This document shows positions 55,600-59,168 of a stretch of 60,884 bases of DNA, piece by piece (position 1 is the stretch's first letter; the number at the start of each line of letters is the position of its first letter). The notes below the pieces were generated by a model. It ran no database searches, was not told the DNA's origin, and worked only from the letters and a program-made list of their open reading frames with translations. The translations under genes and the position numbers were made by a program. Source of the DNA: a bacterium (lineage in GTDB: Bacteria; SZUA-182; DTGQ01); assembly GCA_040752695.1 (NCBI GenBank), contig JBFMGO010000025.1, positions 1-60,884 of the forward strand, in the 5' to 3' direction.

Positions 55600-55720
55600 C
55601 AGTGGAGTAGAGTAGGCAGCAGAATTGACAGTAGAGCGGGCAGCAGTGCAGGCAGCAGGATTGACAGAAGAGCAGGCAGTATGGTGGGTAACAGAGCAGG
55701 CAGCAGAGTGGGCAGCAGGG
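55581..55720 (+). repeat. about 12-nt degenerate tandem repeat starting in the last codons of the radical SAM gene
   Basis: gcaggcagcaga gttgacagtgga ... gtaggcagcaga attgacagtaga gcgggcagcagt gcaggcagcagg attgacagaaga. Confidence 0.8.
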
Positions 55721-55722
55721 CG

Positions 55723-55914
55723 GGGCTTTTTTGCCCCGCCAAATCCAATGATGAAAGGTGGGGCAAAAAGCCATATACATCCCCTCCGCAGTTACGTGCT
55801 GGCTCTCCCTTGAGGCAGCCAGCCAATCCCTCTCCTTCAAGGGAGAGGGATTGGTGAGGGTGATCTTTCAGTGCGTCTCCATCCCATAAGGTTGTGCGTC
55901 TCCATCCCATAGGG
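55723..55914. repeat. cluster of REP-like palindromes and a short duplication between convergent genes
   Basis: ggctttttTGCCCCGCC...GGTGGGGCAAAAAGCC; tccctctcc-ttcaag-ggagaggga; gtgcgtctccatcccata x2. Confidence 0.65.
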
Positions 55915-55990: not shown

Positions 55991-58279
55991 CTATGGGTTG
56001 ATTTTTCCTCCCAGGTACTTGCTGAAGAGCGTTTCGACATCGGCAGAGGTGCATTCTCCATCCATGTTCACATCACAGCATATCTCGGAGCAGGTGCCGC
56101 AGAAAGTCGTAGGACAGATGTTGAGCGATTTTTCATAGAGGCAGAGTGCATCCTTTGGAGTCACCTGGCCATCGCCGTTCATGTCCTCCGCACAGGGCGG
56201 CGGGGAGAGGATGCATCCATTGGTTGTTTTCCATCCCTCCATATCATCGGACAGATTCTCAAGACACAGGCTGCACTTTCCTGCCCGTGGGGTAACGGGA
56301 GAAAACTGAAGCGTAACGAGCGTACCGCTATAGCCGGCTGGAACGATTTTTTCTCCACGGTCAGAGCCGTAATTGCTTCCGGTACAGTGGATTTGCCCTG
56401 GCCTGATCTGCTGGCAGTTGCAGAGGTTAAATCCTTTGAAAAACTGGCCCGGCTCAAATCCAAGATAAGTGGTCATGCCGGGATCGTAGGTAATATCGTA
56501 TCCAAAAGAGAGTACCTCGTGGGGGGCGTTTTGAATTCGGATCGGGATCAAGCCGATCCCCTGGCTGATATCGAGCACTCCTGAGTCATCGGTGGTACAG
56601 GCACAGCCCATTGTGGTCTCCTGTATCCCCTGGATGCAGACCTTATCCAGGCAAAACTGGGCTCCGTCTATCCCCTGGTAGTGAAAAGCCAGGCGAAAGG
56701 GAGTATTATTGATTTCCGGCGGCAGACGGTAGCTCACCGGTATCCATGTCCAGCTTTCGTCATCGTAATCCAGATGATCTTCGATGATGTTTTCGGTAAT
56801 TAAAATATCATCGCCCGTCCCTCCGTCCCAATCTCCACGCACTGCCCATAAACTGACCTGATAGTGACTCTGGCTTACTCCCCAGTAGTAGGAGCCCATA
56901 AAGGCGAAGGCCACGGACAGGTCATGTCCTTTAACCTTCCAGCTCAGCAGGACTTCATTCTGAGGTTGCAGATCAGGATCGTATTCAACCACGATGGACT
57001 GCAAGCCTTCGTACACAGGAGATGTGGAGGTTTTCCAGGTGTAACCGGTGTTTTGAGTCTTTTTTTCCCATTGTGACGGAAGCCCTCCGCTCTTGTTTTC
57101 AAAGCCTTCTTCGAGGTCGCAATCCCAGGATATCGGTGCAGAATAGTAGATTAAGCTTTCCTCAATTCCACATTCGTTTTTCCCCATCTTAATCCGAAAC
57201 CATCCTGAATCTCCCCAGTACGGACCCCAACTATTTTTACAGATCCAGGTATGATCGCTATCGTCCCAGCCTATTATCACTATGGCATGATCTCCAATAA
57301 TGGACCCCTGCACATGCTCATAGGCTCCACGGGAATAATACATAAAATCGTCGTATACGGTCATGGCTACTAACAGAGGCCCTTTCAGCAGCTTCTGCTT
57401 GATCAGTGTCGGATTGACCGCTTGCGGAAATCCGCTGACCCAGTTCCAGTCCGGAATTTTCTCCAACTGGCTTTCCCAGGCAGGACACCGGCCCTCACAA
57501 GCCACATCCTGGGCTTTATAGGGAAAGCAGTCCTCTTTCGGCGCTCCTATGTTTTTTAAAAATGCTGCACTGCTATCCATAAACCATCCACCGCAGCCTC
57601 CCTCACTGCACGAGAGCATGAACTGCTCCGAGTAATCGAGATTCAAAGTCGGGTCTCCCAAACCGATTTTTTTCATCGACTCCATCACGGCAATGGATGC
57701 ATGCGCCCAGCATGAGCCGCACGATCCCTGATTTCGAATCGGCGTAGTCCAGTTGCGTTTATCTTTGCTGCGCCAATCGAACTGAGAAGGCAAGGTTACG
57801 CTGCCTGCACCGGCGGGGCTTGCAGTCAAAGAACCGCTCCCTTCCGGGAAGGCCGATTGATCCTCTCCCCGCTGGGAGGATGCGTTCCCCACCAGGAAGT
57901 AAGATTCAGCTTGAGAAAAGCTCCTGGCCCTCAGGTACCCTGCACCTCGTATGGCTGTGCCCCGTGAATAATCGCTCTGCATACCCTGCACGCCCTCCGC
58001 ACTCTGTACGCCCTCCGCACCCTCTGCACCCTCCACGCCCTGCATGTCTGCGAAGGGTCTTCTCTTCCCTAAAAGACCGCACAGTGCCTGTTTCTGCGCC
58101 ATAGAGAGGTTCGATGTCGAAGTCTCTCTGGCTACCCAATGTTTTTTCCTGCCTTTAATGAGCTCGTTCAGGGTTTGAACATTCAGCTTCTCCCCCCTGG
58201 CTATGCTGCCCACTCCATTACCTACGGTTAAGATGATGAGAATTAACACCACGAGAGGTTTGAAAAAATAGCTTTTCAT
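55991..58279 (-). CDS. secreted papain-family (C1A) cysteine protease with adhesin-like, cohesin and dockerin modules
   Basis: Signal peptide; LPSQFDWR, NQGSCGSCWA (Cys), DHAIVIIGW (His), CKNSWG (Asn). Cohesin IPIRIQNAPHEVLSFGYDITYDP...GYSGTLVTLQF. Dockerin DMNGDGQVTPKDAL...DVNMDGECTSADV. Confidence 0.88.
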   Translation of the reverse strand: MKSYFFKPLVVLILIILTVGNGVGSIARGEKLNVQTLNELIKGRKKHWVARETSTSNLSMAQKQALCGLLGKRRPFADMQGVEGAEGAEGVQSAEGVQGMQSDYSRGTAIRGAGYLRARSFSQAESYFLVGNASSQRGEDQSAFPEGSGSLTASPAGAGSVTLPSQFDWRSKDKRNWTTPIRNQGSCGSCWAHASIAVMESMKKIGLGDPTLNLDYSEQFMLSCSEGGCGGWFMDSSAAFLKNIGAPKEDCFPYKAQDVACEGRCPAWESQLEKIPDWNWVSGFPQAVNPTLIKQKLLKGPLLVAMTVYDDFMYYSRGAYEHVQGSIIGDHAIVIIGWDDSDHTWICKNSWGPYWGDSGWFRIKMGKNECGIEESLIYYSAPISWDCDLEEGFENKSGGLPSQWEKKTQNTGYTWKTSTSPVYEGLQSIVVEYDPDLQPQNEVLLSWKVKGHDLSVAFAFMGSYYWGVSQSHYQVSLWAVRGDWDGGTGDDILITENIIEDHLDYDDESWTWIPVSYRLPPEINNTPFRLAFHYQGIDGAQFCLDKVCIQGIQETTMGCACTTDDSGVLDISQGIGLIPIRIQNAPHEVLSFGYDITYDPGMTTYLGFEPGQFFKGFNLCNCQQIRPGQIHCTGSNYGSDRGEKIVPAGYSGTLVTLQFSPVTPRAGKCSLCLENLSDDMEGWKTTNGCILSPPPCAEDMNGDGQVTPKDALCLYEKSLNICPTTFCGTCSEICCDVNMDGECTSADVETLFSKYLGGKINP

Positions 58280-58357
58280 AGCGATTCACCCGATTGTCTA
58301 TAATTTTAATGGAATATAAAAATCGTTTATTATTAAAAATCGCATCATTTCACAATC

Positions 58358-58573
58358 TATGGTTCAGTTACGGTCATAGTTCGATTTCAGTTATAATTTA
58401 TCTAATTGCAGTTATGGTTCAGTTACGATTTAGTTCCGGCTATGGTTCAGTTACGATTTAATTTCGGTTATCATTTAATTTCGGTTATGGCTCAACTTTC
58501 GTCAAGGTTTTGTTAAGATTAAGGTTTCGTTAAGATTAAGGTTTCGTTAAGATTATGGTTTCGTTGTGATAAT
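58358..58573. repeat. two repeat tracts upstream of the protease
   Basis: tatggttcagttacg at 58358, 58413 and 58441; 4 x 17 nt ggtttcgttaagattaa at 58506-58573. Confidence 0.8.
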
Positions 58574-58649
58574 GCTTCATTTCTGACAATCCTTCGCCTT
58601 CGATTATGCTCCGCTTTTGGCTATGCTCAGCTTTCGATACAGAGATATA

Positions 58650-59168
58650 TCAATTTCTCCAGCAGGTAAATCGTCCGCTCCCCGTTTCCCAATCCTTCAA
58701 ATCATCTACTTCACCGTCTATACTCAGGGTACTGTTTTGGCATTTGACCTTTTTGAAATATAAAAACAGTACATTTCCACTCTGCCCGGAGGGGATTGTA
58801 TTCTTAGCTGTGTTGAAGCCACCGCATCGCAAAACTCCGGGCTCTACCTGGACGCAGCTAAAATATTTGCATTTTTCTACCATTTCCCCCCGCTCATATT
58901 GACTGTATGCAAGAACCTGCGGGTTGAAATGCACCTCAAAGCCAAAGCATTGCACAGAATTGGGAGCATTTTTGACAGAAACAGTGAACATAACTGACTC
59001 CTTCATGTTTCCTTTCTGGCTATCGATAGTCAGGTTTTGGCAATTCCCAATCCTGCCAGCAGCCCCCAGCCAGACAACCCAAAAAACAAGAAAAATCATC
59101 GCCCGCTTTGGTGAAACTTTTTTAGTGCATGTCATAGTGTGTGGCCCCCTGGTAGATGAAGAATTCAC
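58650..59168 (-). CDS. secreted stand-alone cohesin-domain protein
   Basis: Signal/TM then LTIDSQKG..ESVMFTVSVKNAPNSVQCFGFEVHFNPQVLAY...IPSGQSGNVLFLYF. Clearly homologous to the protease's cohesin-like module. Confidence 0.75.
   Translation of the reverse strand: MNSSSTRGPHTMTCTKKVSPKRAMIFLVFWVVWLGAAGRIGNCQNLTIDSQKGNMKESVMFTVSVKNAPNSVQCFGFEVHFNPQVLAYSQYERGEMVEKCKYFSCVQVEPGVLRCGGFNTAKNTIPSGQSGNVLFLYFKKVKCQNSTLSIDGEVDDLKDWETGSGRFTCWRN

Follow-up and report, generated by a model that had tools for sequence, protein, structure and literature searches.

The window analysed here, i.e. the whole 60,884-bp stretch of contig JBFMGO010000025.1 from the bacterial assembly GCA_040752695.1 (GTDB lineage SZUA-182; DTGQ01; genome G000 below), carries two co-oriented genes: P0001, which encodes a secreted papain-family protease ending in a cohesin and a dockerin, and, directly upstream, P0002, which encodes a signal peptide and a single cohesin. 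These genes constitute a conserved dedicated pair, and the distribution of conserved residues suggests that the stand-alone cohesin, rather than the one located within the protease, would be the receptor of the protease dockerin. A first-pass annotation, made from the sequence alone, read the locus as a candidate cellulosome-like proteolytic complex, an idea already in print for the planctosome (PMC6461901).

Full-length orthologs of P0001 (57-69% identity) are found in four of the five genomes of the same family, and in each of them the lone cohesin gene lies directly upstream on the same strand. One metagenome ortholog, found on two contigs, shows the same arrangement. Among 20 genomes of the class, both genes are present in five and neither ortholog was found in the other 15 (including G001). 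In G003 (76% complete), the pair provides the only matches to the cohesin-dockerin family profile; in G004 (95% complete), only a dockerin in a 77-codon frame and one divergent cohesin are found in addition to it. As the pair persists in these two genomes with almost no other cohesin or dockerin, it is not a by-product of a genus-level expansion. A related-locus search with P0001 as query found nothing; the protein database holds eight further full-length P0001 entries, some from the same genomes as the orthologs, and also C1-cohesin-dockerin proteins devoid of the MAM-like module described below. At the G002 locus (L049:1-1650, G002:C61), fragments of phage-like morphogenesis open reading frames (named by eye) lie directly downstream of the protease ortholog, and a GNAT gene located upstream is common to this locus and the window.

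P0001 belongs to peptidase family C1A by its domain and its catalytic residues, and its proteolytic activity is predicted. Indeed, Peptidase_C1 (PF00112) matches residues 163-378 over its cut-off (165 bits, E 3e-48), and Q184, C190, H331 and N349 are invariant across 13 aligned rows, four of which are duplicates or near-duplicates of other rows; the intact triad noticed in the first-pass annotation is thus upheld. In C1A proteases the propeptide is inhibitory, a role that the predicted propeptide of P0001 would share. The adhesin/MAM-like nature of the module that follows the catalytic domain is tentative. The middle module (residues 385-553) has no Pfam match at E<=1 and no sequence match in the PDB, the Atlas assignment to a Cleaved_Adhesin cluster (0.88) is a lead only, and the weak matches to MAM proteins of a poor full-length model (predicted local distance difference test, pLDDT, 35.8; 13 rows) are hints only. 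NCBIfam gives no match for P0001 or P0002.

The hidden Markov model (HMM) search proposed in the first-pass annotation gave a mixed result: Dockerin_1 exceeds its cut-off on P0001 residues 698-751, just barely (23.4 against 22.9 bits), and Pfam Cohesin does so on P0002 (31.1 bits, cut-off 24.1) but not on the module internal to P0001 (12.1 bits). However, this module reaches 88 bits with an HMM built from the genome's own sequences, and an AlphaFold model of residues 559-762 (46-row alignment; pLDDT 88.5; predicted template modelling score, pTM, 0.76) matches solved cohesins (Foldseek E 7e-10), with Z 16.2 to the type I cohesin 6kgc_A (root-mean-square deviation 2.0 Å over 124 aligned residues), Z 14.0 to the archaeal 2xdh, and Z 10.7 to 4n2o and 4wkz from Ruminococcus, 4n2o being a stand-alone cohesin. 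The internal module is therefore a real cohesin despite its Pfam score. These fold searches barely probe the dockerin part, in which both repeats retain D1, N3, D5, T9 and D12; helices are modelled at model positions 150-160 and 187-197. As modelled, it is a type I dockerin with two F-hand Ca2+ loops, each followed by a helix, which agrees with the Cys-rich duplicated dockerin proposed initially.

The identification of P0002 as a signal peptide followed by one cohesin homologous to that of the protease was borne out as well: its profile matches solved cohesins, and it shares 26% identity with P0001 residues 559-688 (E 1e-16). Two disulfides, C94-C104 and C132-C158, are likely. P0002 and its six orthologs terminate with the cohesin; in all seven, a pattern search revealed no lipobox, no C-terminal hydrophobic stretch and no Cys-containing sorting tail, and these proteins thus differ from the anchoring single cohesins of the OlpA/SdbA/ScaE type. 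A start at GTG 59168 was rejected since the orthologs align from ATG 59135. A lipoprotein was also rejected, as the candidate Cys is preceded by N, H, K or M and is absent from two of the seven orthologs (Cys32 of P0002 is Gly in those of G003 and L101). At E<=0.001, the P0002 profile retrieves 1057 Atlas clusters, among which other tail-less cohesins of 146-170 aa were seen (16 of the 150 clusters listed were examined individually).

Table 1. Features of the P0002-P0001 locus (positions in the window; evidence where given)
Feature	Positions	Strand	Evidence
Degenerate 17-bp direct repeats between P0002 and P0001	58355..58582	.	repeat scan
Lone cohesin gene P0002, 161 aa, start ATG 59135	58650..59135	-	Pfam; orthologs align from this Met
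P0002 predicted Sec/signal peptidase I signal peptide, cleavage before invariant Gln33, without lipobox	59040..59135	-	by eye
P0002 mature stand-alone cohesin; conserved predicted docking face G65, R103, G105, F107, D144, D145	58653..59039	-	
Secreted C1A protease gene P0001, 762 aa (signal peptide, propeptide, C1A, MAM-like, cohesin, dockerin)	55991..58279	-	
P0001 predicted signal peptide, residues ~1-28	58196..58279	-	sequence; hydrophobicity 2.7
P0001 predicted propeptide, residues 29-162; W48, L66, C67 invariant	57794..58195	-	alignment
P0001 papain-family (C1A) catalytic domain	57146..57793	-	Pfam match and invariant residues
P0001 catalytic residues	Q184 at 57730, C190 at 57712, H331 at 57289, N349 at 57235	-	
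P0001 MAM/cleaved-adhesin-like beta-sandwich, residues 385-553	56621..57127	-	family not established; weak matches
P0001 internal cohesin, residues 566-695, with a type I-like fold and a degenerate predicted docking face	56195..56584	-	
P0001 Cys-rich dockerin with two intact Ca loops	56009..56188	-	Pfam and alignment

The question of which cohesin receives the dockerin was addressed through the docking face. When aligned with solved cohesins, P0002 has G65 where type I cohesins carry the strand-3 Asp, and G105 where they carry the strand-6 Leu. The latter is presumably the residue numbered Leu83 in the type I literature. Leu83 is named as an affinity hot spot of a type I cohesin (PMC12484212). 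Position 105 is Gly in all seven lone cohesins. Of the 56 cohesins outside the protease, 48 have Gly or Ala there, whereas the nine internal to it have neither (T, V, V, V, W, S, S, R, Q). Similarly, position 107 is Phe or Ile in 7/7 lone cohesins and aromatic in a single internal one out of nine, and position 65 is Lys or Glu in two of the nine; in P0001 itself, T633 replaces the Gly of position 105 and S635 the Phe of position 107. Across six matched pairs, overall identity is the same for the lone and the internal cohesin (0.51 each). However, it reaches 0.64 in the lone cohesin against 0.38 in the internal one over 13 predicted face positions (permutation p 0.01), whereas the back face shows the reverse (internal 0.51, lone 0.31; p 0.017). 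The predicted docking face thus appears to be the least conserved part of the internal cohesin.

The protease dockerin displays a peculiarity of its own. In repeat 1, positions 10, 14, 17 and 18 (P708, L712, Y715, E716) are invariant in the nine orthologs, whereas in repeat 2 the Pro of position 10 is lost and position 14 varies. It therefore does not show the symmetric recognition residues of the dual binding mode, while the generic dockerins of the genome are symmetric, with F at position 17 and mostly R, K or Q at position 18. In a quick tree (one of two built on 131 columns, this one omitting the long-branch rows C39, C46 and the first cohesin of C59), the lone cohesins (99% support) group with other dockerin-free cohesins in a clade that is itself supported at 99%; L011, a predicted lipoprotein of G000 with two cohesins, belongs to this clade, as do tailed single cohesins from G006 and G009. 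The protease-internal cohesins branch apart from it, on a long stem, as a clade of their own.

Taken together, these data suggest that P0002 binds the P0001 dockerin 1:1 as a cap or shuttle and that the internal cohesin is a structural support only, comparable to an X-module, a proposal whose chances we put at about even. The short junction between cohesin and dockerin (8-13 residues in 44 of 46 tandems, the other two being pattern misses) and the modelling of the P0001 559-762 tandem as one unit count in favour of this proposal. Both proteins would be exported by the Sec pathway to the periplasm of a diderm cell, where they would form disulfides and bind Ca2+. The dockerin would then dock by repeat 1 only (P708, L712, Y715, E716) onto the Gly-lined face of P0002 (G65, R103, G105, F107), which would cover the hydrophobic dockerin face, so that the protease could travel as a soluble heterodimer, neither chained nor at once captured by the other cohesins of the cell. 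Once the propeptide is removed, the MAM-like module may hold the substrate, and the products may feed peptide uptake.

Several observations weigh against this proposal. The docking-face positions were assigned by sequence alignment and not from coordinates; without the four face positions noticed before the test, the contrast falls to 0.52 against 0.39 (p 0.14), and the p-values are overstated as the six pairs are kin. The internal cohesin retains G593 in 7/9 and D679 in 9/9 orthologs, so that it may still bind a dockerin weakly. The co-occurrence of the two genes, in kin genomes that are not independent, may reflect one gain of an operon and one loss, and neither gene was found in G001, which has 20 dockerin and 22 cohesin matches, so that the pair is dispensable. 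Furthermore, the dockerin of Ruminococcus flavefaciens ScaH recognises its own cohesin (PMC5301203). This last observation lends itself to the linear protease polymers imagined in the first-pass annotation, in which each dockerin would bind the cohesin of the next molecule and the lone cohesin would limit the length. The internal module indeed has a full cohesin fold, is overall as conserved as the lone one, and its short junction with the dockerin probably disfavours binding in cis. However, the centre of its face is variable and bulky or charged, and it is the opposite face that is conserved. We therefore give such polymers a small probability for P0001, the degenerate face arguing for capping 1:1 rather than for chaining. 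The same annotation offered the lone cohesin as cap or anchor; the cap fits the data, whereas the unanchored ends of all seven lone cohesins speak against the anchor.

Anchoring could nevertheless be achieved by another protein. The dockerin might end on a cell-anchored cohesin such as L011, P0002 being a transient carrier, as proposed for CohG; the lipobox and two cohesins of L011, its place in the P0002 clade together with the G006 and G009 single cohesins bearing Cys-containing C-terminal tails, and the diderm nature of the host, with its seven secretin matches, are consistent with such a hand-over. It is nonetheless unlikely: the search of G003 and G004, both of which retain the pair, revealed no anchored member of this cohesin family, and Y and E at dockerin positions 17 and 18, instead of the generic F and R/K/Q, suggest a private partner. 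A slim chance is left to the absence of any cohesin-dockerin binding, the tandem being then a tail stabilised by Ca2+ and disulfides and P0002 having another role, e.g. as a beta-sandwich inhibitor or folding helper. Such tandems are common in many phyla without a known function, the family has Gly in place of the type I strand-3 Asp, and its dockerins have Pro/Ala where those of Clostridium thermocellum have Ser/Thr. However, conservation of P0002 concentrates on the canonical docking face and not on the back (0.64 against 0.31), and the archaeal cohesin 2xdh, used as a working binder (PMC9705933), likewise has Gly at position 105. Lastly, the dockerin could aim the protease at cohesin-coated foreign cells, P0002 being a co-secreted safety cap protecting the cohesin proteins of the producer. 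Related tandems in Desulfobacterales genomes, the persistence of the pair in genomes almost without a network of their own and the alpha-2-macroglobulin and Kazal domains among dockerin cargo would fit this decoy role, which is highly improbable given that the propeptide already provides latency.

The genome-wide context does not support a dedicated proteolytic complex. G000 (6.05 Mb, 96.6% complete, 2.3% contamination) contains 40 cohesin and 42 dockerin Pfam matches, and HMMs built from the genome identify 53 frames, i.e. 8 with cohesin only, 19 with dockerin only and 26 with both, always a cohesin directly followed by a dockerin. An N-terminal hydrophobic stretch is found in 44 of the 53, and no protein carries more than three cohesins. 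The Pfam scan covered 52 frames, a 109-residue contig-edge fragment being left out, and detected a polysaccharide deacetylase and several beta-helix domains, but no catalytic family of glycoside hydrolases. Peptidases exceed the cut-off in only four of the 53 frames (two C1, two C25; one M12 lies below it), and the rest of the cargo includes vWA, PQQ-type propellers, CotH kinase, alpha-2-macroglobulin and Kazal domains. With so few peptidases, and with cytochromes and a carbon monoxide (CO) dehydrogenase also among the cargo, the supposition that the assembly targets protein is not supported. The non-cellulolytic setting is supported: there is no glycoside hydrolase among the six window proteins scanned against Pfam (a part of its open reading frames), and GH5, GH9, CBM3 and SLH were not found in G000, nor was a multi-cohesin scaffoldin with CBM3. 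The GH48 search was uninformative (its control was silent). The host is considered diderm on account of four Omp85 and seven secretin matches. Dockerin matches are patchy among relatives, with 20 and 29 in the two congeners against 1, 1 and 4 in the remaining members of the family, and 17 in G007. Tandems related to those of G000 are also present in Desulfobacterales records, and Atlas clusters of cohesin/dockerin proteins span several phyla.

Some members of this set deserve mention. L023 (G000:C47:20667-22925, minus strand) is the catalytic subunit of an anaerobic CO dehydrogenase (TIGR01702, 583 bits against a cut-off of 478) with a twin-arginine (Tat-like) motif, one CxxCH and a C-terminal dockerin; a full-length ortholog, 92% identical, was found only in G002 among 20 relatives. 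Other dockerin-tagged proteins are a cytochrome with 23 CxxCH motifs (L034, G000:C83:13746-17723, plus strand), a GEGP-type diheme protein (L029:3362-4777, minus strand), an alpha-2-macroglobulin with an internal dockerin (L041, G000:C130) and a CotH kinase with lamin-tail domains and two dockerins (L009, G000:C13), whereas a beta-propeller protein with Kazal repeats (L037, G000:C98) ends in a cohesin-dockerin tail. L011 (G000:C20:4856-6535, minus strand), whose predicted lipobox and two cohesins were mentioned above, has a type IV pilin-like gene three genes away and is the best candidate anchor of the network. A Gly/Ser-rich Cys-Phe-Ile/Val tail terminates about 20 large secreted G000 proteins (the raw pattern gave 39 matches, many of them spurious); two proteins with such tails (L022, L046) carry divergent cohesins, and relatives possess single cohesins that end in the same way (L180, L181, L182). 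As no NCBIfam sorting-tail family was found in the 24 frames scanned, these tails are pattern matches only. L013, L016:1556-5287 and L032 are cohesin-only proteins with long low-complexity tails rich in Tyr, Trp, Ser, Gln and Pro, possibly a non-covalent surface anchor.

Polymerisation suits the other 25 tandem proteins better than P0001, as most pre-dockerin cohesins retain the relevant glycines (G105 in 18 and G65 in 21 of the 24 scored). The genus may build, without a scaffoldin, a self-polymerising extracellular mesh out of some 25 interchangeable tandem proteins and dockerin-only cargo (multiheme cytochromes, exported CO dehydrogenase, CotH kinase, alpha-2-macroglobulin), from which the papain protease would be kept out by an orthogonal private pair, its own cohesin being disabled and its asymmetric dockerin covered by the free cohesin; we hold this picture to be speculative and doubtful as a whole.

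No terminator-like site was found between P0002 and P0001, the intergenic stretch has no second copy in the genome, and a promoter/terminator scan remained at chance level (12 vs 7.5 +/- 2.7; 6 vs 5.6 +/- 2.4). A 269-bp element resembling a miniature inverted-repeat transposable element, with 17-bp inverted ends, lies upstream of P0002 (59343-59611), with partial copies on two other contigs, and 12-bp repeats are found at 55606-55731, downstream of a radical SAM gene.

The theme of non-cellulosomal cohesin-dockerin protease systems is already published and the polymer claim is weak for P0001; if only the general theme is true, the locus extends an already described class by one lineage. The pair nevertheless touches a broader question: what stand-alone cohesins do outside cellulosomes, and what purpose the very common cohesin-dockerin fusion tails serve there. 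It is small, self-contained in two genomes and leads to residue-level predictions (G105 and R103 against Y715 and E716; internal face disabled) that three purified fragments would be enough to probe. If the proposal is true, it would provide a disulfide-stabilised and probably orthogonal cohesin-dockerin pair for enzyme scaffolding. The literature search, whose coverage excluded most subscription papers, retrieved no description of a lone cohesin paired with a protein of C1A-cohesin-dockerin architecture.

By the features examined, the P0001/P0002 system is neither a cellulosome nor a planctosome. A papain-like cellulosomal module has been described (PMC3573020), and anaerobic methanotrophic archaea (ANME) possess extensive cohesin and dockerin proteins (PMC9012536). 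The planctosome of Nemodlikiaceae is a proposed peptide-degrading cohesin-dockerin assembly (PMC6461901), and Ca. Stygibacter is credited with a cellulosome-like complex containing S8 and C25 peptidases (PMC8542988). Like the system described here, both are predicted for uncultured diderms and involve peptidases rather than cellulose degradation, and their HYR, lamin-tail and C25 domains are also found among G000 cohesin/dockerin proteins. However, their dockerin-only peptidases (M12B, M14, S8, C25) are recruited by a scaffoldin that is anchoring or has several cohesins, whereas P0001 unites peptidase and cohesin in one protein, the product of the neighbouring gene is anchorless and peptidases make up less than a tenth of the cargo. 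In addition, the only lamin-tail protein among the G000 frames scanned combines dockerins and CotH without a cohesin, no M14 is found and the M12 match lies below the cut-off.

Closer parallels exist. In Archaeoglobus fulgidus, a cohesin-dockerin gene presumably adjoins a single-cohesin gene, and the dockerin binds both cohesins; to our knowledge, no papain domain is found in that system. As here, its cohesin 2xdh is non-cellulosomal, type I-like (Z 14.0) and has Gly at the strand-6 position, but it is archaeal. Binding has been verified for this pair (cited in PMC9012536 and PMC9705933). In the X-module-dockerin dyads of type II and III scaffoldins, a beta-sandwich likewise directly precedes the dockerin and likely supports it, the difference here being that both fold and ancestry identify the supporting domain as a cohesin. 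A precedent for the proposed cap is the R. flavefaciens stand-alone cohesin G, which binds the group-4 dockerins of ScaB, ScaF, ScaH and CttA (PMC5301203), and a 'molecular shuttle' has been proposed for it (cited in PMC6507058). CohG/ScaG with ScaH and ScaF (4n2o, 4wkz) thus resembles the pair in having an anchorless secreted lone cohesin beside single cohesin-dockerin proteins, and the system also includes a dockerin-bearing cysteine peptidase. However, its modules are of type III and belong to a Gram-positive cellulosome whose ScaE is anchored by sortase, and ScaH binds its own cohesin, whereas the pair described here combines a type I-like fold (Z 16.2 against 10.7), disulfide-rich modules and a diderm host with a lone cohesin that forms an operon-like pair with one catalytic cohesin-dockerin protein, whose internal cohesin is predicted to be non-binding.

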